Shown: positions 1,850-20,979, numbered from the stretch's first letter. The stretch: DNA of 32,000 nucleotides from Phnomibacter ginsenosidimutans (GCF_009740285.1 NZ_CP046566.1:3044658-3076657), one strand, 5' to 3'. Program-made: numbers and translations. The notes: a model not told the origin generated them from the sequence alone.

Positions 1850-2545
1850 TTAACTTTTATCGAATAACGATGTTTGAGCTTCCCCTCTCATTATAAAGGA
1901 AAAGCACTTCTCCATAGTTACTAAACCAATACCAGGCTCATTTATCAGGTTGATCATTGACTTGATAGACTTATTTTCAATAACGGTGGTTATTGTATTT
2001 ATCCTGTCCTTCCTTATACCTGTAACCTTTTGAATTTGGGCAGAACTAAATGAGCCCCATTTAACAGCAAATGATTCAAATAAATCATCCGGTGCTAATG
2101 GATCATACTCAAATATTTCGACCGGAATTTCACATTTTGATAAATAGCTTGACATAAGCTGATATACCTCATCTCTATCTAAGCCACCATTATGAGCTCC
2201 AAGTAAAGGAAAGGCAATTGATTCAATGCCTTGAACCTTGTATGTATCAAGAAATTTTTGAAGCCCTTTTTCAACGTATTCTAATTTGCTGGGATATTTC
2301 CAATGGAATTTTGTAGGAAAATTGAGAACCCAGGGTGCATCCGGCTCACCTTTATATAACCATAACTTACCAATTCCAATGAGTTTTGACTTGCAATGCT
2401 CTTTATACAAATCAAACATTTTCGGATACCTTAGCTTGTAAACCAAAGCTATTCCTTTCCCCATTACCCCAACGCAGTTAACGGTATTAACCACTACCTG
2501 TGCCTTTGTATTAAATATATTTCCTTTTACTAACTCTATTGCCAT
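1850..2545 (-). CDS. DarG-like macrodomain protein (putative DNA ADP-ribosyl glycohydrolase / antitoxin), short form with a C-terminal HhH-like tail
   Basis: 231 aa. GNIFNTKAQVVVNTVNCVGVMGKGIALVYKLRYPKMF and NFPTKFHWKYPSKLEYVEKGL closely match the DarG macrodomain signature as I recall it (NTVNCVGVMGKGIAL...; FPTKxHWxxPSKL). The start lies 1 nt after the stop of the DarT-domain gene. Confidence 0.8.
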   Translation of the reverse strand: MAIELVKGNIFNTKAQVVVNTVNCVGVMGKGIALVYKLRYPKMFDLYKEHCKSKLIGIGKLWLYKGEPDAPWVLNFPTKFHWKYPSKLEYVEKGLQKFLDTYKVQGIESIAFPLLGAHNGGLDRDEVYQLMSSYLSKCEIPVEIFEYDPLAPDDLFESFAVKWGSFSSAQIQKVTGIRKDRINTITTVIENKSIKSMINLINEPGIGLVTMEKCFSFIMRGEAQTSLFDKS

Positions 2546-2546: not shown

Positions 2547-5500
2547 TCAATTCAGATTATATAGCTCCCATTTTGTATTTTTAATTTCATCCTGAAAGTA
2601 AACTTTCAAAGAAGTGTGGTTTTCAAATTTGATATTCAAACTTGGATATGCACATATCATTGATTCAGTTGCATTGATAACATTCCCACTTATCATTTCA
2701 TATTTTGTGCCGGATGGGAATTGAACGATAAACATTCCAGATTTGTACCCATTACCACTGTAATCCGTTGAAATATTCAATATGCCATCACGGTATTCAC
2801 ATTCAATATCTTTGTTCTGATTGTGGTAAATATCATCACTATAAGAAGATACTTTGATTCTATTGGCGTATTGACTTTTTTCACCAATCCTTCTTATCAA
2901 TTCATCCTTATCATTCTCGCTTCTTACTATAATATCAATATTTATGAAGCTGGTAAAATCAAACTCATCTTTTATTAAAAATTCTTGTTGTGAATAATTA
3001 ATATAAGTTCTATAGTCGCCATCAGATGTATTGAATATAGTGCTATACACATCACTAAAATTAAACTTAGATAACATTTGCAAGACAGGTTTTACTACCG
3101 CCCAATTCGTTTGCATATTACCATTGCTCATATAGCATTTACCACGCAACTTCAATAAAACTTCCTGTAAATTAAATCGAAAAAAAACAGGAATGGGACA
3201 TTTAGGCAATCCTAATCTTAACGCACTTTCATAATATTTATTGGTTATATCTAACCCCAAACATTCATTATAAAACTGAGTAGGTGTTTGTGGCCTGAAA
3301 TAGAATCTTGCAAATTCATGAGCTGTATGTCGCCTGCCAACTACAGCACCTGCTGCATCTGCAAAACCAATAGCCTTATTACGGCTGAGTATCTTTTTAT
3401 TCTTAATTATTTCAATTGCGTTTGTAAGGTGTGTAAAATGATAAATGTAACCTGACCAACTTGATTGCTTTGATTTTAGATTTAAATAAAGTTCTAATTC
3501 AGGAATACTGTTCACTATTTGAATTATATGCTCTCTTATGGATAAGGGAATTGAAATGTTTTCTTGCAGATAGAAGTAATCCCAATACATCATGAACTCA
3601 TCAACCATTTCAACTGTGAAATTGATTGATGTATTTTGAGAAATATATTCCCAATCCAAAAAGTCTTTAAATAGCCGCAACCCATTTATGTCAAAAACTA
3701 ACATACCTGAAATGATCTTCCAGTTTAAAAACTCCTTGAATTTTAGGAGTATTTCAGGGGATGGGGAGAATTTTTCTGATTCGCAAAGCAAATTCCATTC
3801 TATTAAATCTTGATAAGTAGTTAGTATGGTTATGTCATTAAAATCCAGCTTCCAATTTTTGATAAAAGACATCCAATCCCATTTGCTTTTATATTCTAAT
3901 AATAATTCTGGATGCTGTTGAAAGTCTAAATTTTGATGACTTGAAAGAGTAGCCCACAGATCGTTATTCAAAACATTATTTGAAACAAATAATTTAATAA
4001 CATCGGGTGTAATATGTATGGAATCACTATTCAATATGGCATGCCAATTTGAATCAGTGTGCTGTACAAACAGACTTAACAAATTAAGATCAAAGAGTAA
4101 ATTTTTACTACTGCTCAAAAGCGACCAATTCCATTGTTTATCTGAAAGTGTAAGCAATGTATCATTGTCAATCCAACTTGCCTTTGAAAGCAAATTGTAA
4201 TCCCAGTCTTTATCCTGAAGTTGTAATAAAAGCTCTTTGTCTACTTTTAAGAAACTATGAGAAGATAAGGCGTGGTAATCCCAGGGTTTTGAGCCATTTT
4301 CTAAAACAAATTCTTTTGTCAACTCAAAACGTGGGTGAGAAGATAGTTTTTCCCAATCCCAAGGATAGTTGATAAACTTGCTAACTAAAGCTGGATATAA
4401 TGTTACTTCATAACGAACTGATAATGCACCCCAATCTATTAGGCTTGAAAACCTATTTAAGCGTCTTGAATCAAATTCAGTAATTCTTTTTTCTTTATTT
4501 GAATTTGTAAGTAATGCACTTGCTGATGATAGTATATGCCAATCCCATTTATCCTCAAATTCTGAAATAATTCGTTCATTCCAAGTAATATTATTTATCG
4601 AGCTAAGAGCAGTAAAATCCCATTCATCCTTATATGCATAAAGATATTCAAGCGTTCTATCCAGCCATTGTCTTGTGTCTCTATAAACTACTTTACTGAA
4701 TTGAAAAAAAGAAGAAAGAGTACTATTGCTTGAAAGTACCTTCCAATTTATTTTATCTGAATATGTTGATAGAAAACTATGGTCAATTGGGATAACTTTT
4801 GAAGAGCTGATATAATTCCAGTCCCAGGTGAAAATATCAAACTGAATAGTTTCTTGAATAAATTTCCAAAGGTCGTTAGGCAATATTTTTTTTGTTATAA
4901 CAGACCATGACTCATTTATAACAGATTCTGGTGACTGTGAAATCAAAACTGCCAGCGATTGTAATTTATTTGTTGGGGTCAAGTCGATTGCCGAAACGAA
5001 TTTATCAATTAGATAAGGCCAATGAATGTATGAAGCATATTCAACTTGAAAATCATCATCCAATAATAGCTCAGAGCTTATTCTATTTTTAGTTACCAAA
5101 CTCCAATCCCAGAAAAGGTCAGGATTATCAAGGATGAAATCCAGCTCACATTTTTCTGATAAATAATTCCTTAGACCTTCAGCAGATGGCAATTGTAATA
5201 ATTCATTCTCATCCGATAATACAATTTCATTAAGAGATTCTACCGATGCCTCTCTAAGAACTGAAACCCAATTAATGGCTATGTTATGAGAATTAAGGAG
5301 TTCCCGATTTAATAGTATTTGTTCAAAAGTAAATTCAGTCGATACATGCTTTGATATTATCACCAGCATCTCTTTTTCAACTGCCCATTGAATAAAGAAG
5401 GCCAAATTATCAGCCACAAGTTCCGATGGAACACTATTGATTAAAATATTTAATGCTAATTTATCTTGGTGCTTGCGAATAAATTCAGAAGACCATTTTA

Positions 5501-5804
5501 AGTCTTTACGATTACAAATAGCACTAAAGTTCCAAGGAAATGTTTCATTTAACTCAACTATAGAGATATTATCAATAGAATGGGATACATTTTCATAGCC
5601 GGCTTGATTTTTAACTAAGTTGTTAAATTTTTCAAATAGGACTGATGACCACTTGAGATTTTGATTTGCTTCAATTCCCGGAATCTTTTCATTGCCCCAA
5701 AACAATAAGTCATTGTCAGATAGAAACTCAAATATTTCTGAATTTAAAATTACATCCTGATCCCTTCCAATTTTGAAGTTGGTTCTTTTGAGAGAATTAA
5801 TCAA
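2547..5804 (-). CDS. Large repeat protein with a DarT-like (DUF4433) ADP-ribosyltransferase domain near the C-terminus
   Basis: 1085 aa with a TTG start in the track. Residues ~35-770 carry about 20 repeats with the core W-[DN]-[WYF]-x-x-[LI]-S (FWDWSLV, TWDWNYIS, KWDWHILSS, PWDWEKLSS, PWDYHALSS, DWDYNLLS, QWNWSLLSS and others). Residues ~783-965 (nt ~2910-3458) match DarT motifs: IYHFTHLTNAIEIIKNKKILS (YHxTH), HEFARFYFRPQTP (VPFYF-like) and QQEFLIKDEFDF...IDIIVRS (catalytic-Glu AEFLV-like). A ~120-aa C-terminal extension (nt ~2550-2909) has no motif I recognise. The true 5' end is uncertain (see finding at 5805-6071). Confidence 0.8.
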   Translation of the reverse strand: MINSLKRTNFKIGRDQDVILNSEIFEFLSDNDLLFWGNEKIPGIEANQNLKWSSVLFEKFNNLVKNQAGYENVSHSIDNISIVELNETFPWNFSAICNRKDLKWSSEFIRKHQDKLALNILINSVPSELVADNLAFFIQWAVEKEMLVIISKHVSTEFTFEQILLNRELLNSHNIAINWVSVLREASVESLNEIVLSDENELLQLPSAEGLRNYLSEKCELDFILDNPDLFWDWSLVTKNRISSELLLDDDFQVEYASYIHWPYLIDKFVSAIDLTPTNKLQSLAVLISQSPESVINESWSVITKKILPNDLWKFIQETIQFDIFTWDWNYISSSKVIPIDHSFLSTYSDKINWKVLSSNSTLSSFFQFSKVVYRDTRQWLDRTLEYLYAYKDEWDFTALSSINNITWNERIISEFEDKWDWHILSSASALLTNSNKEKRITEFDSRRLNRFSSLIDWGALSVRYEVTLYPALVSKFINYPWDWEKLSSHPRFELTKEFVLENGSKPWDYHALSSHSFLKVDKELLLQLQDKDWDYNLLSKASWIDNDTLLTLSDKQWNWSLLSSSKNLLFDLNLLSLFVQHTDSNWHAILNSDSIHITPDVIKLFVSNNVLNNDLWATLSSHQNLDFQQHPELLLEYKSKWDWMSFIKNWKLDFNDITILTTYQDLIEWNLLCESEKFSPSPEILLKFKEFLNWKIISGMLVFDINGLRLFKDFLDWEYISQNTSINFTVEMVDEFMMYWDYFYLQENISIPLSIREHIIQIVNSIPELELYLNLKSKQSSWSGYIYHFTHLTNAIEIIKNKKILSRNKAIGFADAAGAVVGRRHTAHEFARFYFRPQTPTQFYNECLGLDITNKYYESALRLGLPKCPIPVFFRFNLQEVLLKLRGKCYMSNGNMQTNWAVVKPVLQMLSKFNFSDVYSTIFNTSDGDYRTYINYSQQEFLIKDEFDFTSFINIDIIVRSENDKDELIRRIGEKSQYANRIKVSSYSDDIYHNQNKDIECEYRDGILNISTDYSGNGYKSGMFIVQFPSGTKYEMISGNVINATESMICAYPSLNIKFENHTSLKVYFQDEIKNTKWELYNLN

Positions 5805-6022
5805 ATAAGAACCGAATTTAGGGTCGTTGAATGATAATTTAAAATCAGACTCATTTTTAAGTAACCTGTTAACTACTGCAATAGTGTCAATGTATGGAAA
5901 TAGAGCTTCAATATTTAGAATGAAATAATTTATTGAATACGTAGAGCAGATAAGTGACCAATCCCAGCTTAGCTGGGGGTTATTAAGAATTAAATTGCCT
6001 GACTGTATTTCTCCAAAAGATA

Positions 6023-7264
6023 TTAGCGTGTGAAGGTCAAAGGTAATGTTTGAATTTCCCTTTCGATAAATTCAAATGAAACTCTATTTGTAACTTTTTT
6101 CCAATCTTCAATTGCATAAACATCAATAATGGTTGTTAATAACTGTTCCAGTTCTTTTTGGTCAATTCTTTCCAAAAACACATCAATATCCCAAGGAAAT
6201 TGATTGATGGTATTTATAATGTATGGTATTTCAACTTTCTTTGAAAGGCGAGACCAGTCCCAGTAATCCGCATAAGCTTCGATATTCAATATCAATACTT
6301 CATCAGGACAATTCTGTATTACCTGATACCATACTGCGTTACTTGTAACTTCTTCACTTGATAACAATTCAAACCAATTGTTATCCCATACTACTCTTGA
6401 ATCACACAGCACTGTTTGCCAATTGACATGTTTGGTGAATTGGGAAATATCTGCCGCATGTATTTCTTTAATATCTCTAAGATATAACTGATAACGGAGC
6501 AACAGAAGCCAATCAGCAAACAATTTTGAATTTGCTTCTTTTAAAATTATTTCATCTAATTCAGGCGAAGGTTTGTCATTTAAAACTACTTCTATTCTGT
6601 AAACTTCATCCTCTTTTATTAAGGAAAGGGATATGTGTGAAATACTTTTTTCATAATTAAGCACCGCCTCATTTACCCATTGAATTTCAATATTCTTATT
6701 CTCTTCCAGTTCTGAATTAAAATTTAGAAGTGCCTTGTGAAGAAATACATTTTCATGCTGGTCTTCAGGACTAAAATAGTAAGGCTTTATTTCCTTCGAA
6801 TTATATATTTCAGAAAAAAGGCCATACTTAGAAAAATGAAATAGATTGTCAAAATTTTCCCAGTCAAAGAGAAGATAATGCTCATTAAAACTGATAACAC
6901 CTTCGTAAAACAAGTGCTTAACTCCTTTTTGTCTTGCTTCTAACCCCCAATGGGTTGTAGAAATAATCAGATTACCATCTTCATTTTTATGAGTTGATAT
7001 CAAATGATATTCTGTAAGTGTATCAAGTAATGAAGAGAATATTCCAGCTTCAGCTATGTCAAAATACACCTGCTCCTCTTCATTGGCTTCAACAGCAAAA
7101 CCTAAAATGGAGCCTAATTCATTATAACCAATTGTATCATTATACAAGTACAAAAATGAAAGAATAATATTGTCAAACTCAGTGAGAGGATATGCCTTTC
7201 TAAAAAGCACCTTATGCTTTGCAACCCTAATTGGCCAGTCCTCTTTTATCGTTATAAGATTCAT
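6023..7264 (-). CDS. Hypothetical protein with the same W-D-W/LS repeats in its C-terminal third
   Basis: 413 aa. The C-terminal part carries HVNWQTVLC, NNWFELLSS, DYWDWSRLS, FPWDIDVF and IEDWKKVT, the same repeat core as the downstream DarT-domain protein. Its ATG overlaps the helicase stop (ATGA at 7261-7264), implying translational coupling. Confidence 0.75.
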   Translation of the reverse strand: MNLITIKEDWPIRVAKHKVLFRKAYPLTEFDNIILSFLYLYNDTIGYNELGSILGFAVEANEEEQVYFDIAEAGIFSSLLDTLTEYHLISTHKNEDGNLIISTTHWGLEARQKGVKHLFYEGVISFNEHYLLFDWENFDNLFHFSKYGLFSEIYNSKEIKPYYFSPEDQHENVFLHKALLNFNSELEENKNIEIQWVNEAVLNYEKSISHISLSLIKEDEVYRIEVVLNDKPSPELDEIILKEANSKLFADWLLLLRYQLYLRDIKEIHAADISQFTKHVNWQTVLCDSRVVWDNNWFELLSSEEVTSNAVWYQVIQNCPDEVLILNIEAYADYWDWSRLSKKVEIPYIINTINQFPWDIDVFLERIDQKELEQLLTTIIDVYAIEDWKKVTNRVSFEFIEREIQTLPLTFTR

Positions 7265-10200
7265 TGTTTTAAGGATTTGGCATCAAATGATTTTACAGCA
7301 CCATTAGGATGTTGCTGAATTGTTTCATAAACCCTGTTATAAATGGCATGTTTTCTAAAATGCTGAGAATTGCCAACAATTATTAGTAGCCTTTTTGCCC
7401 TGGACAATGCCACATTCAGACGATTGGGAAATTCTGCAAACCCTAAACTTTCTTGGGATGGATAACCATTCTCTGGGTACGCTTCCATATTAGGAGCCTG
7501 ATTTGGAAATTCAGCTATGGAATTGCTTCTAACCAATGATACTACTACAATATTCCTCTCCATGCCTTGAAAACGGTCAACTGGCGAGATTCTTAGCGGA
7601 ACTTCGGGATACTTATCCTTCAACTTATTTAGTAACCCAGCTTGAGCACCGTAGAAAGTAATTATGCCAATTTGCTTCTGCTCTATATCACCTGATGGCC
7701 AATAATCCACAAAGTTTTTATATCCGGGTGATTTCTTGAAATAACTTAAAAGCCAATCAATCGCCTGAACTTCTCCATAGTTAACTCTGGATGTACCGCT
7801 TTTTATTTCCGGTGATACTACATCAAGCCAAATAACATGTGTTTGTTTGTTGGCTGTAACACCATGATAGCGATTCAGCGGATGTGACATATCTTCCGAA
7901 TTGGCTATCTCATCTGGAATACCACATTCTAAACCTCCGTCAGCAATATAAAACTGTTTTATAGTTTCATTTATCGCTGGATGCATTCTGTATTGGACAT
8001 TAAATGAGGACTTTAAGTTTTTATCAATTCCAACAAATAACTTTTCAAAATGGGATACTGAAAATTCCTCTTTGTTTTTCTTAATATAACTTATAAGGTC
8101 ACTGATTTCCCTTCTGTTTTTTTCATCTTTCGTTTTTTTCGACATCATTTTAAGATTATCGATAAACTCAGCAGTATCGACCATTGGAGGCAACTGTCTA
8201 TGATCGCCAATTACAACAGCCTTTTTTCCGTAGAGGCATGGTAATGCTAATTCAGGAGGTGAGGCTTTACTCGCCTCATCCTGTACAACAAGATCAAACT
8301 CAATGTTTCTTTTCTTTAATGCAGCAATAGTGTTCTTATTTATAGAATGACGAAAAGCATCATATTCTTTGGTGTGTAATACATTGCAATAGTCTGAGAA
8401 GAATCTTGTAAATTTCTGTTCTGAATTTTCTTTACCAATTGAACTACAAGTTGCTCCTATTACATTAGCATTTTGTATGTAGTTATTAAAAAATAACGAC
8501 CGTAATTGCTCATTTGCCTTTGTCAGATAGGTTATCCACTTTTCAGATAAATCGCTGTTAAATGTGGTTTGTTTTCTCCTTGCCCTATTACCGATTAAAG
8601 TAATCCAGTCTTGTAAAATATTAGTAGCTGATTTATCTTCAGTCAACTCCTTATTGCCAAATAGAACCCATTGTTTGAGGGATTCCAATGAAAATCTTCT
8701 TCCTTCTTTATCCAATTTGTCATCAGAGCCAAACCTAATTGGTTTAATTAATAAATGTGTTTGGGCCCGGAGTTTATCTAATGCGTTATCAACAGCAAGG
8801 TTAGTCTCTGATGTGACAAGAATCCTATATGGCTCTTTCTTAACAGAAATATTAGAACGGATGTGTTGCCATATCAACTCCGCAATTGCTGTAGATTTTC
8901 CAGTACCGGGAGGACCTTGTATTAGAAAAAAGTCATTTGCCAATAGGCACTTTGCAATCGATTCTTTTTGCCGGTCATTAATGTTTTTCGAAAGCAATGA
9001 AGCATCAATTTCATTGATTGTTTTTTCGTATTCAGCAGTACGTAAAATATCACCAGGGAAACTTCTGGCCTTTGATGAATCCACTAATATATCCCGGAGG
9101 CTTTCATTTAATATCTTCTGCTTAGTAATTGAAAATATAATGTCAATTGTATTTGATAGTCTTTTTATTTTATCCCTTTCGCCCTTTAAAGTGCAGCAAA
9201 CTTTAGTCAAAGTATCTGGAACACAAATTGTATCCCTCATTGATTCCATTTCAATCACAATATTGGGATAGCTAATCTTTATAATATTCCCGAAAGGGAC
9301 AGGCTTTTTATCATCCCACAAAGAAATTTCCTCACCTCTTATGTAATTAAATTTGCTATTGATTTCAGCCTCAAATTCTTCTTGTTTAAAGTTTAGAAAA
9401 TATTTTAGTTTGCCTTCTTGCAGTTCTTCAAATACATACTGCATATTATCATTCAATAGCGGATCAATTGAATCTTTTATTTTTGCAACAAGTAATTGCA
9501 ACAAGTCATGATTGTCAAAAAAGCAGAAGAATGATAGTTTTAAACCATTGTTAGACAATTTAGTTTTGATGGCCGGTATTTGCTGTAATTCCTCCTGTAT
9601 TTCCAATAAAGGTGAGGCATATTGTAACTTTATCTTAAAACCATGCTCAGCTCCCTTGTTGTCAATATCTGCAATCTGTAATGCTGATAAATATTCAATT
9701 CCAGAAGTTAATTCATCTTCATTAGTGAAGTCAAATGAAACTGTTTCCTTCTCAACGCTAATATTAAAGCGTTCATCCTGAACAGAATTTTGGAAATGTT
9801 CCAAAAATAAACTTCTATCAATTTGAAATATGTGTTGGTGCTTTATAGTAAAAGAATCGGGACCAAAATATCGTTCAAATACTTTCTTGTAATGAAATAT
9901 CTCAAAACGAAAATCTGATAAAGTAATATCTGATTCAAATGTTAGGTGAAATTCATTATTTATTGGTGTTGGGAGAATCACACCCATTTTATCGTTCTTC
10001 TTATCTTCAGAAGAAAAGAATATCTTTTTAGATTTTCTTGTATCCAAAAAATTCTGAAATAAATCTTCCTTTATTGTGAATATTAAGCGATGGTGAGATT
10101 TGTGATAAGCAGTGTTTTCTTTTATAAAGTTTAGTGCAGGTTCCCTTAAAAATATATCCTGAATAATCAGATTGGCAAAATGACCGTGACAAGAGACAGA

Positions 10201-10770
10201 TTGAATACCTAATGTCTGAATTAAATATGAACTTGCGATTTCATATTGCTTTTGTATATAGTATTTAGAAGGCTGGATTTTAAAGATGCCTCCAATAACA
10301 GCTGAACGGGTAAAGCCATTTAGACTTTGTATTTTATCATCAATTCGCTTTATGTCTGAAAGAGTGGCAACTATTTGACCTTCCTTGTTAGGCTGTTGCT
10401 CATTTATGTCAGCTAACCATTTGTATGGATTTTCTTTTAAACTTACATGACCTGAAAAACATGGCTTATAATCAAACTCAAAATAATTTGCATCCGCTAC
10501 TTCTTTTAATTCATCTGTATGCTGTGGACTTCTGGATGAGTTATACAGTAAATAGCCATCCTTAATATTTATATCGTTTTGTAAAATCCCAGGAAAGGAT
10601 TTTTCTAATGAATGAATAATACTTGAGAGGGGATTTCTTTGTTCGATTGTGAAGTGAGCCAATCCAGTTTTATCCGTCTTTTTAAACTCAATTGCAAATG
10701 GTTCTGAATACTGATTAACGAATATTTCTTGAGCTTTAATAAATGCTTTCCAGCTGTTGATTGTTGACAT
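7261..10770 (-). CDS. Superfamily 1 helicase, Upf1/DNA2-like (AAA_11/AAA_12 class), with a ~580-aa uncharacterised N-terminal region
   Basis: 1169 aa. Motifs seen: Walker A LIQGPPGTGKST, motif II VVQDEASKA, motif III VIGDHRQLPPMV, then NVQYRMHPAI, IGIITFYGAQ, VDRFQGMERNIVVVSLVRSN and NVALSRAKRLLIIVGN. Confidence 0.9.
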   Translation of the reverse strand: MSTINSWKAFIKAQEIFVNQYSEPFAIEFKKTDKTGLAHFTIEQRNPLSSIIHSLEKSFPGILQNDINIKDGYLLYNSSRSPQHTDELKEVADANYFEFDYKPCFSGHVSLKENPYKWLADINEQQPNKEGQIVATLSDIKRIDDKIQSLNGFTRSAVIGGIFKIQPSKYYIQKQYEIASSYLIQTLGIQSVSCHGHFANLIIQDIFLREPALNFIKENTAYHKSHHRLIFTIKEDLFQNFLDTRKSKKIFFSSEDKKNDKMGVILPTPINNEFHLTFESDITLSDFRFEIFHYKKVFERYFGPDSFTIKHQHIFQIDRSLFLEHFQNSVQDERFNISVEKETVSFDFTNEDELTSGIEYLSALQIADIDNKGAEHGFKIKLQYASPLLEIQEELQQIPAIKTKLSNNGLKLSFFCFFDNHDLLQLLVAKIKDSIDPLLNDNMQYVFEELQEGKLKYFLNFKQEEFEAEINSKFNYIRGEEISLWDDKKPVPFGNIIKISYPNIVIEMESMRDTICVPDTLTKVCCTLKGERDKIKRLSNTIDIIFSITKQKILNESLRDILVDSSKARSFPGDILRTAEYEKTINEIDASLLSKNINDRQKESIAKCLLANDFFLIQGPPGTGKSTAIAELIWQHIRSNISVKKEPYRILVTSETNLAVDNALDKLRAQTHLLIKPIRFGSDDKLDKEGRRFSLESLKQWVLFGNKELTEDKSATNILQDWITLIGNRARRKQTTFNSDLSEKWITYLTKANEQLRSLFFNNYIQNANVIGATCSSIGKENSEQKFTRFFSDYCNVLHTKEYDAFRHSINKNTIAALKKRNIEFDLVVQDEASKASPPELALPCLYGKKAVVIGDHRQLPPMVDTAEFIDNLKMMSKKTKDEKNRREISDLISYIKKNKEEFSVSHFEKLFVGIDKNLKSSFNVQYRMHPAINETIKQFYIADGGLECGIPDEIANSEDMSHPLNRYHGVTANKQTHVIWLDVVSPEIKSGTSRVNYGEVQAIDWLLSYFKKSPGYKNFVDYWPSGDIEQKQIGIITFYGAQAGLLNKLKDKYPEVPLRISPVDRFQGMERNIVVVSLVRSNSIAEFPNQAPNMEAYPENGYPSQESLGFAEFPNRLNVALSRAKRLLIIVGNSQHFRKHAIYNRVYETIQQHPNGAVKSFDAKSLKQ

Positions 10771-11437: not shown

Positions 11438-12835
11438 TTACTCCCCCTCAGCCAGCATTGCGTCGCCCAATTGTTTCTTTGCACTAGCCCCCATTTTCTT
11501 CAGCTCCTCCACACGGCGAACCAAATTGCCTTTGCCGGTGCTGAGTTGTTTGAAAGCGATGTCGTAAGCCGATTGCGCATCGCCTATTTTCTTGCCCACA
11601 TCTTGCAGGGTATCGGTGAAGCCCACAAACTTGTCGTAGAGGTCCCCGGCTTTTTCTGCAATGGCGATGGCGTTTTGGCTTTGCTGTTCTACACGCCAGA
11701 GGTCGGCAATGATTTTGAGCACCGCCAGTAAGTTGGTGGGGCTTACTAACAGAATGCGTTTGTCATAAGCATATTTCCATAACTGGGTATCCTCTTTCAT
11801 GGCCTCCAGGAATGCCGCTTCAATGGGCATAAACATAATCACGTAGTCGAGTGCCAGTGCGTACTTGGGGTAGTTTTTCCGGCTCAACCCATTGACATGG
11901 TTATAGATGCTTTGAATATGCTCTTGCATGGCCTGCTTTTGTTCAGCAAGGTCATCCGCAGACACATAGCGATCCCAGGCAAGCAATGATACCTTGGAAT
12001 CTACGATTACCTTTCGTCCATCCGGGTAATGGAGGGTAACATCCGGCTGCAACCCTTTGCCGTGCTCATCCTTTATGATGTTGCCTGCAGCATCTTTGAT
12101 AAACTCCTGCGTAAAATATTCCCGCCCTTTGGTAAGTCCGCTATGATCGAGGATGCTCTCTAATAGCATTTCGCCCCAATTACCTTGTTGCTTCTTGTTG
12201 CCTTTGAGGGCAGTGGTTAGGTTGTTTGCCTCTTGCCCTATCATTTGCGTGGCATCCACCAGACGTTTTACTTCGGCAGACAATGAAAAACGCTCCTTGC
12301 TTTCTTTATCGTAGGTGTCCTCCACTTTCTTCTTAAACTCAGTCATTTCATTTTTCAGCGGCTGCAGTATTTCTGTGATGCGCCTGTCGTTTGTTTCGGC
12401 AAACTTCCTGGAGTTGGTTTCTAAAATGTCGTTGGCCAAATTTTGAAACTGAATACGCATGCTGGCACCCATTTCCTGCATTTCCCGTTGCTTGTCTTCA
12501 AGCGCTTTGTTGGCTGCAGCTAGCTGCGTTTGCAGCATGGTTGTTTGATTTTGTGCAGCAGCATACGCTGTTTGTAAATCGAAATACTTCTGCTGTTCGG
12601 CTTCCAGCAATTGCAGTTTACCCTGAGCCAGGTTAGTACTGGCCAGGTATTCGTCACGTTCCATCCGTAGCAAAACATTGTTTTTTTCGAGCTCCTCTTT
12701 TTGGGTTGTTACCTGCGAGAGCATCTGCTCAACGCTGGTAAGCTTTTGCTTCATCAGCATCTTGCTGATCAACCAAGCGGCAGCAGCGCCTGCCATAAGG
12801 GCTAATAAGGCAGTCGTCAACAGTTCGTTCGTCAT
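11438..12835 (-). CDS. rmuC: DNA recombination protein RmuC
   Basis: 465 aa. It has an N-terminal TM helix, a long coiled coil, then QGNWGEMLLESILDHSGLTKGREYFTQEF...LQPDVTLHYPDGRKVIVDSKVSL, which is typical of the RmuC family. Confidence 0.9.
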   Translation of the reverse strand: MTNELLTTALLALMAGAAAAWLISKMLMKQKLTSVEQMLSQVTTQKEELEKNNVLLRMERDEYLASTNLAQGKLQLLEAEQQKYFDLQTAYAAAQNQTTMLQTQLAAANKALEDKQREMQEMGASMRIQFQNLANDILETNSRKFAETNDRRITEILQPLKNEMTEFKKKVEDTYDKESKERFSLSAEVKRLVDATQMIGQEANNLTTALKGNKKQQGNWGEMLLESILDHSGLTKGREYFTQEFIKDAAGNIIKDEHGKGLQPDVTLHYPDGRKVIVDSKVSLLAWDRYVSADDLAEQKQAMQEHIQSIYNHVNGLSRKNYPKYALALDYVIMFMPIEAAFLEAMKEDTQLWKYAYDKRILLVSPTNLLAVLKIIADLWRVEQQSQNAIAIAEKAGDLYDKFVGFTDTLQDVGKKIGDAQSAYDIAFKQLSTGKGNLVRRVEELKKMGASAKKQLGDAMLAEGE

Positions 12836-13393: not shown

Positions 13394-13444
13394 TCGATGG
13401 CTGATGTTTTGATAGAATGGTATACCTCGAAATTCTAATTGGCG

Positions 13445-13463
13445 ATTGTAATGAGATTACAAT
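13445..13463. promoter_or_regulatory. Perfect palindrome ATTGTAATGAGATTACAAT, candidate operator (copy 1)
   Basis: 8-bp inverted arms with a 3-bp spacer, located in the divergent region between the 13393(-) and 13502(+) starts. A near-identical copy lies at 16098-16116. Confidence 0.6.
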
Positions 13464-13501
13464 GCAGCGCTACACTTTTACATTCTCAAAAAATTAGACC
13501 T

Positions 13502-14197
13502 ATGCCTCAAAATGAAGTAGAATCTCATCCTTATTTGGATATCCAAATGTCTAAAGCAAATTTTCATCATGGAAGTTTCACTACCCTTCTACTGGGCACT
13601 TTTCCCATTTATGAGCTCACCAAATCTGAGCCAATTGAAGCAGCAGGTGTAACCAAACGAACAGAATGGACACAACAAGCAAATTTCAAATTCTTCTACG
13701 GCAGCAAGGGTAATTCCTTCTGGAAAATACTGGCCAATATTGCAGGAACTGAATTCCCCTCCAGTACAGAATCGTGTCTGAAGATACTTGCACAACAAAA
13801 TATATTCATAGGAGACGTCATCGCATCTGCCTCAAGAATTGGTTACAGTTCCAAAGACCAAGATTTGACTATTAATAGCCTGAACCGGGCTCTACAAAAC
13901 ACACTTGACTCGCTTACTTCAATTCAACAGATTGTATTTACAAGTGATGTAGCAAAAAGAGTATTCACTGAAATCATAGGAATTCCGAACGCAAGAAGAA
14001 TTCAGACAATGAACCTGAATAATCGCAACATTAGCATGTATACATTACCCACACCTGCGGGCAACGGTAGATCGGTCCGTAGATTTTTTAAAGATTTCCC
14101 TCCAACTGCAGAAGAAATAGTCTTGATTGAAAAAAAGCTCCCTTATGCTTTGGCATATCGTGAAAGACTGTATCGTCAGTTTCTGCAGGTAATCTAA
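13502..14197 (+). CDS. Uracil-DNA glycosylase superfamily protein (family-6 / deoxyinosine-glycosylase-like)
   Basis: LLLGTFP...FFYGSKGNSFWKILANI and the C-terminal YTLPTPAGNG resemble UDG-superfamily motifs A and B (GSfPs...YYg...NxFW; lPStSpAN). I placed the start at ATG 13502. The track start 13439 is a non-ATG codon upstream of the palindrome, so an ORF from there would read through it. Confidence 0.55.
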   Translation: MPQNEVESHPYLDIQMSKANFHHGSFTTLLLGTFPIYELTKSEPIEAAGVTKRTEWTQQANFKFFYGSKGNSFWKILANIAGTEFPSSTESCLKILAQQNIFIGDVIASASRIGYSSKDQDLTINSLNRALQNTLDSLTSIQQIVFTSDVAKRVFTEIIGIPNARRIQTMNLNNRNISMYTLPTPAGNGRSVRRFFKDFPPTAEEIVLIEKKLPYALAYRERLYRQFLQVI

Positions 14198-15216
14198 CCG
14201 TTTATTTTATTGCCATATAGTGTCAAGACAGCCTTGGCCGATGATATCATTTTTTCAGCTAGCCAGGCAGGCTTTAAAACCTTTACTGCAGGCCCGTAGC
14301 TGAGAATCAGCATTTCCAATTCTGGACTCGTATAAACATACAAGTCGATTAGTAGCGATTTGCCATCGTTGGTTAAAGTGGCCTTTTGGCTATGATGGAG
14401 CGGATTGGCTTGTATTTGTGCTATAAAATCATTGAATTCCAATTGGATCAGCTCGGGGGCTTTTTCATGCCAGTGCCAAACACCTATACTGTATTTGAAA
14501 TAGTCAGTTGGTGAGAAGTCGGGATCCACAAAATACGGTTCATCACAAGTCTCCACATTTCGGATGGAACTCAGTGAAAAAACAAGTGTTTTATGAGGTG
14601 AACTCGATTGGTGAGCATATGCGACTAGATACCAGCGATCATGAAACTGTTTGAGCAAATATGGTGAAACAACCCGTTTCCTTTCTTCCGTATCCCGCAT
14701 GCTTTTATAGGTCATCAAAAGTGTGCGGCCCTCAATAATAGCGGTCAATAAAGGATGAATCCAAATTGCACCACTATCGTTTTGTGCAGCATTAAAAGCA
14801 ACAATTTGTTCCGTCACCTTTCGTAAGCTACCAGAAGCATTTTCGTTCAGCACTTTTTGAACAGTCTGAGAAAATTTCTCCTGCAATGGCGACCCTGCGA
14901 AAAGGCCAAAAACACTAGCCGCAATAGTGAAGAGCTGTTTGTCTTCGTCGGAAATAAAATCTTCGAATACTTTGTACCCCTTTTGGGTATAATGATACCC
15001 ATCTGAAACGGTGAACTTAACTGTTACATTATCAACATCGGCCAATTCATTAAGTGACTTGATGTATTTGCTCAACATGTCCTCACCTATTTCATCTCCA
15101 CCCTTCGCAGTCACCAAATCATTGAGCAACGAAACGAATTCCTTTCGGCTATTGATCTTCCTGCCACTGGACAAGAGATAATCCATAACACGCAAACGGT
15201 AGTCGCTGAAGTTCAT
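14194..15216 (-). CDS. WYL-domain transcriptional regulator (HTH-WYL-WCX architecture)
   Basis: VVSPYLLKQFHDRWYLVAYAH...LVFSLSSIRNVE is a classic WYL domain. The C-terminal LILSYGPAVKVLKPAWLAEKM looks like a WCX domain. I placed the start at ATG 15216 (MNFSDYRLRV); the track begins at TTG 15258. Confidence 0.8.
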   Translation of the reverse strand: MNFSDYRLRVMDYLLSSGRKINSRKEFVSLLNDLVTAKGGDEIGEDMLSKYIKSLNELADVDNVTVKFTVSDGYHYTQKGYKVFEDFISDEDKQLFTIAASVFGLFAGSPLQEKFSQTVQKVLNENASGSLRKVTEQIVAFNAAQNDSGAIWIHPLLTAIIEGRTLLMTYKSMRDTEERKRVVSPYLLKQFHDRWYLVAYAHQSSSPHKTLVFSLSSIRNVETCDEPYFVDPDFSPTDYFKYSIGVWHWHEKAPELIQLEFNDFIAQIQANPLHHSQKATLTNDGKSLLIDLYVYTSPELEMLILSYGPAVKVLKPAWLAEKMISSAKAVLTLYGNKING

Positions 15217-15370
15217 AATAGACAGTTGTTTGGCTTTTCGAAAAAATTGATACAACAAAGTGATTAAATCAAATATACAGATGTGCCGGTATACGATTCA
15301 TTTGAGACTCAACACGCATTACATCAATTCCAAAAACATTATACCACAATTTTTTGAAAAGCTTTCTAAA

Positions 15371-16060
15371 CTAATGAGAAGGTGTTTTATCCGCTTTATA
15401 CCTCGATTCAAACAACCTGGTATAATTAAGTTCATTCAGGCACCTTACATACACAAAGCCTTCTGAAGTAAACACAGCCTCCATGCTTTTGGCTAGCATA
15501 TCATTGGTTTCCTCTACCCTTTTATGCTGAAACAACAGCCTGGACAAACTGAGATAGCTCTTAGATGAACCTATCAAGAAATGCATGTTTGTGCTATCTG
15601 AAGCAGTAATCACTTCGATTAGTCGCTGCTTTTGCAGATTGCTTTTTGCCAGCAGTAAATCAACGAAATCATCTATCACAACAAAAAATGGAGTAAATAT
15701 TGTATTCGGCTGTTTTGACAACTGACTCCTACGATCTTTAGCCACATTGGTTATTTGCTTGATGAAACTGTCTCTGGAAATGCTCAAATCGCCTTCTGCA
15801 GAACGCCACATGCAAATGGCGCCATTGCGTTGAATGACATCTTCACCGACCGATTGCAACACCTTATTGGATGAACAAATGGCTAAGTTACTCCCAGGAA
15901 TATGAGTAGCTATTTGATGTACTGTAGAGGTAATAATCCGAATCTGAATTTCTGGATTACTGAAAGACAAAAACAGCCTTTCGTTTTCATGGAGGCCAAC
16001 TGCAAAAGGCTCACCGGTACTTTTTAATCCTATTTCTAAGAATACTTTCACTTGCTGCAA
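15371..16060 (-). CDS. Hypothetical protein resembling an FtsK/HerA-type motor domain but lacking Walker A
   Basis: 229 aa with a TTG start. LEIGLKSTGEPFAVGL..., TPFFVVIDDFVDLLL (Walker-B-like, compare vvviDEfADLm) and NMHFLIGSSKS (compare GIHLilATQRPS) follow the order of FtsK motor motifs. I see no GxxxxGK[ST]. This rests on recollection and needs a profile search. Confidence 0.4.
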   Translation of the reverse strand: MQQVKVFLEIGLKSTGEPFAVGLHENERLFLSFSNPEIQIRIITSTVHQIATHIPGSNLAICSSNKVLQSVGEDVIQRNGAICMWRSAEGDLSISRDSFIKQITNVAKDRRSQLSKQPNTIFTPFFVVIDDFVDLLLAKSNLQKQRLIEVITASDSTNMHFLIGSSKSYLSLSRLLFQHKRVEETNDMLAKSMEAVFTSEGFVYVRCLNELNYTRLFESRYKADKTPSH

Positions 16061-16116: not shown

Positions 16117-16160
16117 CCCGTCATATATTCTTGCATTAACCGATTCAAACACACTTGACT

Positions 16161-16856
16161 ATGACGTATGACCAATTGCCAATAGTAGAGCGAATATTCA
16201 ATCTCACTGAGATGAACGCTTTTCATAAAAAATATAATTTGAATTTCAATTACCCTGAGTACCCTGATTATTTATATTTCATTGTTTACATTGATGGTCA
16301 TAAGCCAACTATATTATTCTTTCGTTCGGGCACCGAAAATCGGATTGGTTGGATTTGCCCTAAAGGAATGAATGCGGCTGAAGGTCTATCTCTATTGCCG
16401 TCACATGATTACCATTCGATGCTTCTATTCGCTTCCTTTTATTTAAGCGAAAGTGCTGATAAGTTTTATACCATCCTCAGAAAAAGCAGTGAGTTATATC
16501 AAGGTACTTATTATGATTATGTGTTTGCTCCTACCTATGGCTTTATGGCGTTTGCTGAGCAATTTTCTGAATTATATAGAATTTTCACGGGTGCAAAAAA
16601 AGCAGATGCCGATCAAGTTGTTGTGGATTGGAATTTGAATAGATATGATACAAGAGCAACTATAAGAAATACAGCTGATGAAAATGGCGTCCTATTTAGG
16701 GACGTGATACAAAATAGATTCTTTGATGGCGCCCATTACGTTTTCAGACCCAACTACAAAGCAGCCCATCAACTATTAGCTTTACTTCATGAGTATAGGC
16801 TATTAAAACCATCAATATTGTCAGATACAAAAAGCCGCTACTTCTGGGCATCTTGA
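16161..16856 (+). CDS. Hypothetical protein with apparent similarity to the palm/fingers segment of DNA polymerase III alpha (DnaE)
   Basis: FFRSGTENRIGWICPKGMNAAEGLSLLPSHDYHSMLLFASFY and APTYGFMAFAEQFSELYRIFTGAKKADAD...HYVFRPNYKAAHQLLALL line up, from my memory of E. coli DnaE, with [38 protein letters not shown] and [29 protein letters not shown]...YGFNKSHSAAYALVSY. The protein is only ~230 aa, the size of a single domain. The track starts at TTG 16155. Confidence 0.35.
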   Translation: MTYDQLPIVERIFNLTEMNAFHKKYNLNFNYPEYPDYLYFIVYIDGHKPTILFFRSGTENRIGWICPKGMNAAEGLSLLPSHDYHSMLLFASFYLSESADKFYTILRKSSELYQGTYYDYVFAPTYGFMAFAEQFSELYRIFTGAKKADADQVVVDWNLNRYDTRATIRNTADENGVLFRDVIQNRFFDGAHYVFRPNYKAAHQLLALLHEYRLLKPSILSDTKSRYFWAS

Positions 16857-17388: not shown

Positions 17389-19290
17389 ATGCCAATAGAA
17401 AAAAAGCTTCCAATGCTCTCGAAATCCGATTATCAACTTGCCTCTGGTTGTGCTAAGAAACTGGTATATAAAAAAGAGGGTTATCCAACGACTAATGACA
17501 CGAATGAATACATGGAAATGCTTGCACAAGGGGGCTACATTGTCGGAAAGATGGCCACTTTATATTATGAAGATGGAATAGAGATTGAAGGAACTACAAA
17601 AGAATGCGTTCAGCAAACACTCGAACTATTGAAACAGGATCATGTAACACTTTTTGAAGCGGCTATTCAAAGCGGTCAAAAAATTGTCCGAATTGATATC
17701 CTCATTAAAAGGGGTCAGGAGTTGCAATTGATTGAAGTAAAGTCAAAGTCCTATGCTTCAAACGATCCCAAGTCGATCAAGCAGTTGGATACATACATTG
17801 AAGATGTCGCCTACCAATATCACGTACTGTCAGAACAGTATCCAAATCACAATATTTCCAGTTTTCTTTTCTTACCCGACAAATGTTTGTATACCGAAAT
17901 TGATGGGTTAGCAGGATGGTTTTCAATTGAACCGAACATATCTGAAATAGAAGATGAAAACCCAGATATCATCACGCAACAGCAAACAAGATTTAAAAAA
18001 CCTGTTGTACGTTTCAAATACGAGCATCACCAAGTTAAGGAGTACTATGTAGCATTTTTGAAACGTCATAGAATACTGACACAACTCAACATAACAGATC
18101 AAGTTAAAGCCTTGCAACCAGTTGTCGAACAAAAGGCTGCTAGATACTTGAGGATTCTGAACCAGGGAATAGCCAATGAGGACTTTAAGATTTCGAAGGA
18201 TTGTAAAGCATGTGAGTTCAACACACCTAACGAATCTCAGAATGGATATGCTGAATGCTGGGGAAACATAGCTTATCAGGACCATCATATTTTCGACTTG
18301 TTTTTTGGCGGCGCTGTAAAAAATACACAGAAAGAATACTACTGGAATGAATTAATCAATCAGGAAAAAACACATCTGTTTGATATCGATACAGCTGTTT
18401 TGCGTGGAGACAAAGACGAATTGGGCAAAAGGGCTCATAGGCAGCTTTTACAAATACAAAAGACAAAAGAGAATACAGAATGGAAATCGGAAGCTTTACA
18501 CTCCTTTATTGATTCACTGAAGTATCCATTACATTTTATTGATTTCGAAACGTATACTGGCTCAGTTCCCTTTCACAAGAACATGCGTCCTTATGAAATA
18601 ATCGCATTTCAATGGAGTTGTCACACGATTCCATACAAAGGCGCAACTCCAATACACAAAGAATGGATACACACTGGTTCGCAATTTCCTGATTCAAATG
18701 CTTTTCCCAATATTGAATTTGCCAGAGCATTGATGAAACATATTGGATATACGGGCACAGCTTTTATGTGGGCAACACATGAAAACACTGTTTTGTCAGC
18801 AATACTTAACCAAATAGTTAACAGCGACAATAAGGATCCTGAATTAGAGAAATGGCTAACAGACATCACCAGTGATAAAGCCAGCAAACGCAAAGGCCGC
18901 CTGATTGATATGAATCAACTCACCATCCAATATTATTTCCACCCATACATGAAGGGTCGGACTTCAATTAAAAAAGTACTGCCGGCAATATGGAGCCATT
19001 TCCCATACCTGCATCAGGTTCCTCATTTTTCTAAATATTCACCTGACAACTGGAATACTGGGATTATAGATCCTTACGACAACTTGAAAGCGTTAAACAA
19101 CGTAGAAGATATAGATAGCGATGATGTTGTGGCTGGAGGAACTGATGCCATGCGAGCCTATCAAAGAATCCGTTTTGACAGCAACCTTTCTCAAACCCAG
19201 AGAGCCTCCATCAGAAATCAACTTCTCGAATATTGTAAGCTAGACACCATGGCGATGGTAATAATTGCGTATCACTGGGGAATCAGATAA
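17389..19290 (+). CDS. DUF2779-family protein with an N-terminal PD-(D/E)XK (Cas4/RecB-like) nuclease motif
   Basis: 633 aa. MLSKSDYQLASGCAKKL..., RIDILIKRG...LQLIEVKSKSY (D...E-x-K) and YPLHFIDFETY...PFHKNMRPYEIIAFQWSCH match my recollection of DUF2779 proteins. Confidence 0.65.
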   Translation: MPIEKKLPMLSKSDYQLASGCAKKLVYKKEGYPTTNDTNEYMEMLAQGGYIVGKMATLYYEDGIEIEGTTKECVQQTLELLKQDHVTLFEAAIQSGQKIVRIDILIKRGQELQLIEVKSKSYASNDPKSIKQLDTYIEDVAYQYHVLSEQYPNHNISSFLFLPDKCLYTEIDGLAGWFSIEPNISEIEDENPDIITQQQTRFKKPVVRFKYEHHQVKEYYVAFLKRHRILTQLNITDQVKALQPVVEQKAARYLRILNQGIANEDFKISKDCKACEFNTPNESQNGYAECWGNIAYQDHHIFDLFFGGAVKNTQKEYYWNELINQEKTHLFDIDTAVLRGDKDELGKRAHRQLLQIQKTKENTEWKSEALHSFIDSLKYPLHFIDFETYTGSVPFHKNMRPYEIIAFQWSCHTIPYKGATPIHKEWIHTGSQFPDSNAFPNIEFARALMKHIGYTGTAFMWATHENTVLSAILNQIVNSDNKDPELEKWLTDITSDKASKRKGRLIDMNQLTIQYYFHPYMKGRTSIKKVLPAIWSHFPYLHQVPHFSKYSPDNWNTGIIDPYDNLKALNNVEDIDSDDVVAGGTDAMRAYQRIRFDSNLSQTQRASIRNQLLEYCKLDTMAMVIIAYHWGIR

Positions 19291-19892
19291 GTCCCCAAGA
19301 CAAAAGCAACTCAATAAAACTCTGAGCTGTGTCAGCAGAGCGACTGCCTGAAAGCCGGAGCGTACAGGCCCGCAGCTGAGGGTGGCCAGCCGGCGGCGCA
19401 CAAAAAAGCGGTGGAGGCCCGATGGCTGTAGCCGTGCCTATCCTGCAGTGCAGCGACCGCTGACTGCAGCTGTAGTGAGAGTGGAGCCAACGAAGCCTGG
19501 CCAATGGATGGGTATTGTGCGGTGGGCTTGGCAGGCGCAGTGCAGCGAAACGGAACGGAAGCGAAAGGAAGTAAGGGGGCCAACCAAGGTAGGCTGGGCT
19601 GCAGCCAGAAAGGGCCGGACGGCGGCGACCTGAGGGCTGCCAAAAACCATGACAGCCTTCGGAGCTTGCGGAGCACCCGCAGGGCAGCATGGCTCTGCTG
19701 CACAAAGCTGCGTGTGTTGGCCTGCAAAAGTGCCATGCCGGGCTGGCGAGGTTTTTGTTGGCCGACCGATGAAAGACCGCCGACCTTTTGTAAGGACACA
19801 CTCCTGCCCACACTATCCCAGCAGCATAGAGCGACGAAATGTTTGGGTAAGAAAAAGGAAAGATTTGGTAAAGTAAAAAACGATGGGGACTT
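19291..19892. other. GC-rich, apparently non-coding block (candidate large structured RNA or degraded foreign DNA)
   Basis: G+C rises sharply by eye. ORFs overlap on both strands in several frames, and none has protein-like composition. Local hairpins: CTGCAGT-N13-ACTGCAG (19443-19469) and GCAGCA-tggctc-TGCTGC (19684-19701). Direct repeat GCAGTGCAGCGA at 19445 and 19537. AAGTCCCCA (19289-19297) is complementary to TGGGGACTT (19884-19892). Confidence 0.4.
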
Positions 19893-20020
19893 TTATAGCA
19901 ACGTATTTGTATTATCGAAAGATTTAATAGCTGAAAACTTTCAGCTATTATGATTTGTACACCAACTTTGGTGACAGTACAAAATGATAAATTGTAAATT
20001 GAAAAAAACGAACAAATTTT

Positions 20021-20479
20021 ATGAGAGTTCTTTTGTTTATAGTAGTTATCATCACTTCTATTTCTTGCAACAATTCAAGTAGTGAAAAACAAATACCAAA
20101 CAAAACTAATCGAGAATCAATACGACAGGATATAATAGGCATTTGGGAGCTTTTTAAAAGAAGCTACAAACCAACCGAGGAGCCAAAACTTGTAGAGCCA
20201 AATGATAAAGAATATTTAGAAATAAAAAATGACGGGACTTGCCAGCATGGAAGATATGAAGCAAAATGGTTTTTATCCTATACTGACGACTTTATTATTG
20301 ACTCAACTTCAAAAGTATTTTTTACCGAGTTGACTTATCTCAGTCCTAATTCATGGGGTGAATACGACAGAACAATTAAACCATACCAAATCAAGGTGAC
20401 CACTGAAAACAACATTAAATATCTTTATATAACATCACTTAAATCGTCAGACACTAGAGTTTATATAAGAAAAAACTAA
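20021..20479 (+). CDS. Hypothetical lipoprotein
   Basis: 152 aa. Signal peptide plus lipobox: MRVLLFIVVIITSISC. Confidence 0.6.
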   Translation: MRVLLFIVVIITSISCNNSSSEKQIPNKTNRESIRQDIIGIWELFKRSYKPTEEPKLVEPNDKEYLEIKNDGTCQHGRYEAKWFLSYTDDFIIDSTSKVFFTELTYLSPNSWGEYDRTIKPYQIKVTTENNIKYLYITSLKSSDTRVYIRKN

Positions 20480-20679
20480 GCCAGTGTACAACTGACGGTT
20501 TTGCGACAGCAAGTCCGATGGGAAGAAGCCATAACTTTTGCACTACTATGGGCTACAAATCGGGCTTGTACCTAAACTGATGAAAAGCAAAATATGTTCT
20601 TATCTTTTGAAACTTTTAACAGCAATAGAAGCAGGCAGGACATTTTTCAAATGCTTTTCAAAATGTAAAATTATGACTG

Positions 20680-20979
20680 TTATAAAGTCACAGAAAATCT
20701 AATTTGATTCTTTTCAAATTTCAGATTTACAATAAACCCATCCGTTTCACCCATTAACAGGTATTTGCCAACGGGTATACGGTGCCTGGCTTCTCTGCTG
20801 TAGTTACAATCAATGATACCGGAGGCTTGAAAGCGAAGTGAATCTGTGGGGTGTTCTACTATTCGGTAGATGGTGTATTTCACAAAGCATTTTTCAGAGG
20901 TGATGATGAGTTCATCGGAGGCGGTAAGAGTTGGTTTGCTGCAGGAAAGCAGCAAACCAATGACGAAGATGTATTTCAT
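20680..20979 (-). CDS. Hypothetical small lipoprotein
   Basis: 99 aa. MKYIFVIGLLLSCSK is a lipobox-type signal peptide. Confidence 0.5.
   Translation of the reverse strand: MKYIFVIGLLLSCSKPTLTASDELIITSEKCFVKYTIYRIVEHPTDSLRFQASGIIDCNYSREARHRIPVGKYLLMGETDGFIVNLKFEKNQIRFSVTL

Follow-up and report, generated by a model that had tools for sequence, protein, structure and literature searches.

The defence system DarTG, a toxin–antitoxin pair of type II/IV, is known in a compact form of two genes. Its toxin, DarT, ADP-ribosylates thymidine in single-stranded DNA, the macrodomain protein DarG reverses this modification and the system defends against phage; in its canonical form it is controlled by the antitoxin and not by a sensor domain (PMC11543638). 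The Mokosh systems, of which type I combines the helicase MkoA with the PLD nuclease MkoB, contain Upf1-like helicases, which presumably recognise phage nucleic acid. Here, we describe a DarT gene in a stretch of 32,000 nucleotides from Phnomibacter ginsenosidimutans (GCF_009740285.1 NZ_CP046566.1:3044658-3076657; hereafter the window), in which the toxin domain follows a long array of tryptophan-anchored repeats. The explanation that best accounts for the locus as a whole, and which we hold to be moderately probable, is that the array forms an acidic α-solenoid of about 1000 residues, that this solenoid is the central body of a 1572-residue DarT protein encoded by the middle gene of a module conserved in Bacteroidota, and that it serves as a protein-binding platform controlling DarT. 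The features of the cluster are as follows, with positions counted from the first nucleotide of the window.

1850..2545, minus strand: DarG-like macrodomain protein, 231 residues (Pfam, PADLOC, NCBIfam)
2547..7264, minus strand: single gene with N-terminal domain, predicted Trp-repeat solenoid and DarT, 1572 residues when restored (homologue continuity and frame analysis)
2547-5804, minus strand: open reading frame (ORF) of 1085 residues, downstream part of the split gene
6023-7264, minus strand: ORF of 413 residues, upstream part of the split gene
6039..6041, minus strand: frameshift site, a run of three T where the homologue has four, 1-nucleotide deletion (comparison with locus L001)
6425..7264, minus strand: N-terminal non-repeat domain, residues 1–280 (conserved across orthologues)
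3471..6424, minus strand: Trp-anchored repeat array, restored residues ~281–1265 (motif statistics, self-alignment, canonical-unit profile, conserved Trp columns)
3450..4949, minus strand: section modelled with high confidence, residues 286–785 of the 1085-residue ORF (AlphaFold2)
2850..3443, minus strand: DarT ADP-ribosyltransferase domain, residues 788–985 of the 1085-residue ORF (Pfam, PADLOC)
2547..2849, minus strand: C-terminal domain of ~100 residues after DarT, plus the stop codon (conserved in closer orthologues)
7261..10770, minus strand: Upf1-like superfamily 1 (SF1) helicase, 1169 residues (Pfam, PADLOC)

As in DarTG2, a DarT domain is followed by a gene for a DarG-type macrodomain protein, and the chemistry expected by analogy would be reversible ADP-ribosylation of thymidine in single-stranded DNA. 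Unlike in DarTG2, DarT is embedded in a protein of 1572 residues, its gene has an obligate helicase neighbour (66 of 67 loci), and the macrodomain protein resembles DarG in the macro half only and carries a different tail of 85 residues. Neither a match to the C-terminal, DarT-binding domain of DarG nor a free-standing DarT of about 200 residues in a two-gene arrangement was found. Judged by this comparison, the module would work like DarTG2 with a helicase and a sensor-like body added. With Mokosh type I it shares an MkoA-type, COG1112-type SF1 helicase and the logic of a helicase paired with a separate effector, whereas the effector here is DarT with a macrodomain as its presumed antidote; no PLD nuclease gene is present in the cluster and the helicase has no Pkinase match. 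A description of a module of helicase, solenoid–DarT and macrodomain was not found in the literature searched.

Gene structure and domain layout

The original prediction, made from the sequence of the window, described a repeat array shared by two adjacent proteins of 413 and 1085 residues. These are parts of one gene, which is broken by a 1-nucleotide deletion. At the junction the window reads CCTTTGACC and the homologous locus L001 reads CCTTTTGACC; when one T is added back at 6039–6041, a single ORF of 1572 residues results. The two closest homologues (P0001 and P0004) run uninterrupted from the equivalent of the 413-residue ORF into that of the 1085-residue ORF, and in a three-frame translation of 5700–6120 the stretch that separates the two ORFs, 72 codons long, proves to be conserved coding sequence when read in the other frame. 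Among related species-representative genomes, a single intact ORF is present at 69 of 72 full-length loci. Full-length orthologues recovered by exhaustive HMMER search are 1443–1876 residues long, and the repeat region begins near residue 487. Because the homologues are continuous, the intervening codons are conserved, the gene is intact nearly everywhere else and no slippery heptamer is present, the lesion is best described as a homopolymer deletion, which either arose in assembly or is a genuine mutation that inactivates the gene in this genome.

Two other explanations of the split were considered and rejected. Programmed frameshifting at 6039–6041 would need a −1 shift, for which no X XXY YYZ heptamer is available, and the relatives have one continuous ORF. 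A genuine two-gene form is incompatible with the conserved codons between the ORFs and with the related locus L002, which is split elsewhere and by a nonsense codon.

The restored protein begins with a non-repeat domain for which a Pfam scan gave no match and a profile search of the PDB gave no relative; scans of the whole 413-residue ORF against Pfam, PADLOC and NCBIfam likewise gave no convincing family match. The DarT domain accounts for 13% of the protein, at its C-terminal end, and matches Pfam PF14487 with E = 2.6e-19 (70.2 bits, cut-off 22.5) and the PADLOC DarT profile with E = 8.5e-10; under the NCBIfam equivalog model it scores 20.2 bits, below the cut-off of 150. The motifs YH.TH, VV.RR and QQEFL vary little or not at all across the DarT family found here, and they are candidate sites of the catalytic residues of DarT, namely the NAD-binding His, the Arg equivalent to R51 and the Glu equivalent to E160. 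A phmmer search of the PDB with the DarT part found nothing and a profile was needed for a match to the Thermus DarT structure 7OMV, to which the family profile aligns, including the YH.TH, R51-region and QQEFL segments, although weakly around the catalytic glutamate. Family scans gave no match for the C-terminal domain that follows DarT.

The tryptophan-anchored repeat and its relatives

All 22 peptides that had been given as examples of the repeat are present in the ORFs at 2547–5804 and 6023–7264, and their motif is strongly enriched. The strict form, W[DN][WYF]xx[LI]S, occurs eight times against 0.02 expected from 2000 shuffles, the core form, [DNE]Wxx[LIVF][STC], occurs 13 times against 0.55 in shuffles and a loose form occurs 18 times against 1.44. 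Tryptophan makes up 3.6 and 3.1% of the residues in the two ORFs compared with 0.9% in the neighbouring helicase. When the family alignment is compared with itself by hhalign, residues 326–707 of the 1085-residue protein match residues 394–755 off the diagonal (E = 1.8e-7). A hidden Markov model (HMM) of the canonical 25-residue unit, built from unrelated proteins only, scores 39.0 bits with 14 positive units, compared with a maximum of 8.0 bits and a mean of 0.13 units in shuffles. Orthologue alignments contain about 25 nearly invariant Trp columns over restored residues 292–1227; the array is degenerate in its first half and regular over its last 430 residues.

Two details of the repeat as first described have to be adjusted. 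The spacing had been put at 25–40 residues; the basic unit has 24–26 residues, with spacings of 23–26 dominating, and the distances of 30–40 residues belong to units with insertions. The motif had been taken to start with W-[DN]-[WYF], and this start is indeed enriched, but its first Trp is really a hydrophobic position that is also filled by Ile, Leu, Tyr or Phe, the second aromatic residue being the anchor.

An AlphaFold2 model of residues 286–785 of the 1085-residue ORF, computed with 58 orthologues, has a predicted local distance difference test score (pLDDT) of 95.7 and a predicted template-modelling score (pTM) of 0.77. With only five sequences the model was poor (pLDDT 62), and a Foldseek search with it was uninformative. 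The modelled helices are very short, with a mean length of 6.2 residues, and a new one starts every 13 residues (median). Over residues 326–750, a helix A with the pattern W-x-x-L-S alternates with a helix B with the pattern x-E-L-I-x-x in 16 two-helix units; the model also shows two longer helices that act as caps and a small number of insertions. As modelled, the unit is thus a pair of short helices, W-x-x-L-S and x-E-L-I-x-x-F, joined by a loop, with the Trp, Leu and Ile residues predicted to pack in the core. The expectation of a long solenoid-like array fused to a toxin domain is in this way supported: the prediction shows regularly spaced short α-helical repeats at high pLDDT, followed by DarT (PF14487).

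A first, word-indexed search for homologues found only four relatives. In the exhaustive HMMER search, 968 cluster representatives match the repeat-region profile at E <= 1e-3, about 60 of which are orthologues of 1.4–1.9 thousand residues. DarT was found in 29 of 30 and 27 of 32 long orthologues scanned, a few members carry an HD domain and a Roseivirga pacifica sequence in one of the clusters is entered at NCBI as 'DarT family protein'. The shorter matches (300–1000 residues) carry the repeat in clean form, with a 25-residue unit, and 257 units in unrelated proteins give the canonical consensus W-D-W-x-x-L-S-x-N-x-x-L-P-W-S-x-E-L-I-E-[RK]-[FY]-x-D-[KR]. The window array is a diverged, degenerate version of this widespread unit of 24–25 residues (WDWxxLSxNxxLPWSxELIExFxDK). 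Most of the shorter carriers are without any Pfam domain; occasional partners of the repeat are HD, PLDc_2, HNH, DUF1963, WGR, protein kinase, ankyrin, UvrD, PIF1-like helicases and NOV_C. Searches with a 100-residue, four-unit profile and with a 40-protein profile returned only unnamed 'hypothetical' proteins, with no repeat name and no viral members.

Viral counterparts appear when folds are compared. A Foldseek search with BFVD, a collection of predicted viral structures, gave 37 matches at E <= 1e-3, with E values down to 3.6e-15, and among them are five proteins annotated as 'tryptophan repeat gene family', each with a probability of 1.00. The entomopoxvirus (EPV) matches include a Mythimna separata EPV protein (E = 3.7e-13), MSV205 (6.8e-11) and MSV027 (1.5e-7), and an Adoxophyes honmai EPV protein superposes with a template-modelling (TM) score of 0.77 and a root-mean-square deviation of 2.7 Å over 141 columns. 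Further matches are to Megaviridae, Marseillevirus, Pithovirus and Orpheovirus proteins and to gp558-563 of Bacillus phage G. The entomopoxvirus family (MSV027, MSV029, MSV205, AMV029, AMV254 and others) and the giant-virus proteins resemble the window array in predicted fold, in Trp-anchored tandem units and in forming multigene families. They differ in having 140–630 residues and being mostly repeat-only; one has an F-box and none is reported with DarT. The member with the F-box is AMV254, an arrangement typical of a substrate adaptor (PMC7728225). A Trp-repeat family, of which the window repeat would be a member, was noticed long ago in entomopoxvirus genomes and is uncharacterised, with no family model and no solved structural relative. 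Its original description is reportedly that of Afonso et al. in 1999.

In phages the similarity extends to sequence. The family phrog_3532 matches the window array with E = 4.9e-9, and Listeria jumbo phage LPJP1 matches by tblastn with E = 5e-18, in this case to the canonical repeat protein P0103 and not to the window protein. The LPJP1 unit has 24 residues (KVDWxYISxxQKLSEEFIEKFQD), and its counterparts in the window are INWKVLS, LDWEYIS and LNWKIIS. The bacterial 25-residue HMM gives only negative scores on the LPJP1 proteins, whose 24-residue variant is without the first Trp and the 'PW'. The jumbo-phage proteins (of LPJP1 and of Bacillus phages G, gp558-563, and vB_BpuM-BpSp) differ from the window protein in being short tandem paralogues without an effector domain, all annotated as hypothetical. 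In LPJP1, at least seven adjacent Trp-rich 'hypothetical' genes (3.4–5.0% Trp) lie at 25589-38629 (locus L011). Seven places in this phage match by tblastn, so that the repeat may form a multigene family in tandem there, and the best-matching ORF seems to be interrupted by stop codons after residue 280.

The three-gene module

Of 185,579 species genomes scanned, 127 contain relatives; 80 loci were fetched, about 73 of them from Bacteroidota. The helicase core lies directly upstream and on the same strand at 66 of the 67 loci with enough flanking sequence, the macrodomain gene lies directly downstream at 71 of 75 loci and the same gene order was seen at individually inspected loci.

The helicase matches AAA_11 (E = 2.8e-33) and AAA_12 (4.4e-33) as well as the PADLOC MkoA profile (3.8e-97), for which the best stretch covers profile positions 784–1103 of 1112. 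Its gene ends in a four-nucleotide overlap (ATGA) with the beginning of the repeat gene, an arrangement by which the two genes are predicted to be translationally coupled. Residues 1–590 of the helicase have no family match and are conserved at 44 of 67 related loci; at one locus (L005) this N-terminal part is a separate gene of 544 residues ahead of a helicase core of 686 residues.

The macrodomain gene begins close behind the toxin gene, its ATG lying one nucleotide past the toxin stop codon. The protein matches Pfam Macro (E = 8.4e-16), PADLOC DarG (4.6e-55, profile positions 2–144 of 329) and NCBIfam DarG (2.5e-54, positions 1–155 of 338), the last over the macro half only and below the cut-off. 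From these matches it is presumed to be the antidote. The last 80 residues of the protein (window 1850–2095) differ from the C-terminal domain of canonical DarG and are kept downstream at 63 of 75 loci; they contain LINEPGIGLVTMEKC, which by eye is like a helix–hairpin–helix DNA-binding motif.

Genomic surroundings and proposed role

The DarT cluster has a guanine + cytosine (GC) content of about 0.32, compared with 0.42–0.50 in the rest of the window. The island stretch holds a tRNA-Ser gene, a tyrosine integrase, a WYL/WCX regulator, an AAA_15/AAA_21 ATPase pair, a DUF2779 protein and RmuC, and these surroundings resemble a low-GC integrative defence island. The integrase (27906–29426; Arm-DNA-bind_5, Phage_int_SAM_5 and Phage_integrase) adjoins tRNA-Ser(GGA), and at this point an integrative island comprising the DarT cluster probably ends; at the homologous locus L003 an integrase lies just upstream of the helicase. 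At 22100–24536, where the GC content is about 0.30, the AAA_15/AAA_21 ATPase (532 residues) is directly followed by an ORF of 278 residues without a family match, and the pair is a candidate for a further defence system, of two genes. The WYL + WCX protein (14194–15258), of a regulator type that often sits beside defence systems, is flanked by ORFs at 13439–14197, 15371–16060 and 16155–16856 without Pfam matches. The DUF2779 protein (633 residues, 17389–19290) and the RmuC family protein (465 residues, 11438–12835) separate the DarT cluster from the remainder of the island. Within 19001–22000, between low-GC stretches, the GC content jumps to 0.50 (19–20 kb) and 0.48 (21–22 kb); the only ORFs in this segment are short and overlapping, on either strand, and searches for tRNA genes and Rfam families gave no match there. 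Downstream of the macrodomain gene, at 1–1850, there is no ORF longer than 76 residues and the GC content is about 0.37.

The repeat region carries a net charge of −58 (residues 281–1270) and has an isoelectric point of 4.4–4.9, compared with 9.25 for the DarT domain. Because the array is acidic, because the repeat occurs with many effectors and helicases and because a viral member bears an F-box, we favour a role in binding protein rather than nucleic acid. In the mechanism that we propose, proteins would bind to the acidic solenoid, which as a scaffold or sensor would keep the basic DarT domain switched off and link it to the helicase, to a phage-derived trigger or to both. On infection, the helicase would supply single-stranded DNA, DarT would ADP-ribosylate that DNA and the macrodomain protein would remove stray modification from host DNA.

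Several points weigh against this picture. The sensing or scaffolding role is no more than plausible, on the strength of fusion partners, gene neighbourhood and acidic charge, and the gene neighbourhoods of the short repeat-only proteins are heterogeneous, with no common theme. The presumed superhelical geometry was derived from the secondary structure of the model, its pTM and the fold matches, and the suggested tie to the entomopoxvirus family comes from fold comparison together with the family name. The alignment of DarT to 7OMV holds in the N-terminal half and is weak near the catalytic glutamate (second stretch −1.3 bits), with a possible one-residue offset. Finally, the gene is disrupted here and in the three closest loci, each at a different site, and the disrupted gene may be non-functional in this genome.

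The last point leads to the reading that the locus is a dead pseudogene in this genome, with an array that has no present function and a two-ORF split that reflects decay of a toxic gene. This is a real possibility, although it sits on the improbable side: the frameshift at 6039–6041 would suit it, as would the damage in the closest relatives, where L002 has a Q-to-stop change and L001 has two 1-nucleotide indels in homopolymers of the DarT part, but the window gene has a single lesion, in a homopolymer, and its 4.7-kb reading frame is otherwise uninterrupted, with 80% identity to homologues. In L001, too, the lesions change the length of homopolymers, as is typical of long-read assembly errors, and the gene is intact in most of the related, more distant genomes (69 of 72, as above). 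Whichever outcome applies, the nature of the array is unaffected. As to that nature, the repeats could be LRR, ARM/HEAT, TPR, ankyrin or WD40 units merely too diverged to be recognised by eye, and HEAT, ARM and PPR proteins do head the Foldseek list from the PDB. We consider this very improbable, since none of those matches is significant: with the high-confidence model there is nothing at E <= 1e-3 (best E 0.038, TM <= 0.24), the matches being to generic PPR, ARM and HEAT solenoids only, whereas viral Trp-repeat proteins match at 1e-15 to 1e-7. The window protein matches no Pfam repeat family at E <= 0.1, and among about 110 other carriers no Pfam or NCBIfam repeat model and no PDB sequence matches. 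Generic α-solenoids (ARM/HEAT, PPR, leucine-rich repeat variant) share tandem two-helix units and a hydrophobic core with the array, but its helices are much shorter (mean 6.2 residues, 25-residue unit). The original view that the repeat is not assignable to a named family holds for Pfam, NCBIfam and PDB folds, where it maps to no well-known family of known function; in view of the fold of the viral 'tryptophan repeat gene family' and the phrog_3532 match, the repeat is not wholly unnamed.

If the array is a solenoid, it might still bind nucleic acid in the manner of PPR, PUF, TALE or mTERF proteins, positioning DarT on single-stranded DNA or reading sequence at one unit per nucleotide. Its fusion to a DNA-modifying enzyme and the occurrence of helicases as partners or, elsewhere, as fusions would fit such a role, and the non-significant PDB fold matches include PPR10 and mitoribosomal PPR proteins. 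We think it quite unlikely in view of the strong acidity of the region (net −58), of a consensus whose conserved positions form the hydrophobic core (Trp, Leu, Ile and Phe) with no recurring basic residue, and of E >= 0.04 and TM <= 0.24 for the PPR matches. The same acidity lends itself to another reading, in which the array is only an intramolecular DNA mimic that sits as an auto-inhibitor in the basic DNA groove of DarT, without external sensing, and in which DarT is activated by the helicase or when the macrodomain protein is lost. The charges of array and toxin domain are complementary, and canonical DarTG is under the control of its antitoxin rather than of a sensor domain (PMC11543638), but about 1000 residues are far beyond the need for auto-inhibition and the repeat occurs both alone and with many unrelated effectors. 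As a complete account it is unlikely; it is, moreover, compatible with the protein-binding platform that we prefer and does not exclude it.

A broader proposal, which we hold to be less probable than not, is offered tentatively. The unit may define a class of α-solenoid, so far with neither a family model nor a solved structure, that is common to a Bacteroidota immune module and to entomopoxvirus, giant-virus and jumbo-phage families; the solenoid of the module would then be an infection sensor that licenses ADP-ribosylation of helicase-unwound DNA, and the viral copies could be adaptors or decoys in the same arms race.

DarT is here built into a 1572-residue protein and, in at least 127 species, tied to an Upf1-like helicase, which suggests that immunity by DNA ADP-ribosylation has a regulated form in which a helicase assists. 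The repeat occurs in about 1000 protein clusters and in large DNA viruses whose hosts are insects, protists or bacteria, yet has neither a Pfam model nor a structural relative in the PDB. A family model of the repeat would annotate many proteins that are now called hypothetical and would provide a testable handle on the viral tryptophan-repeat families.

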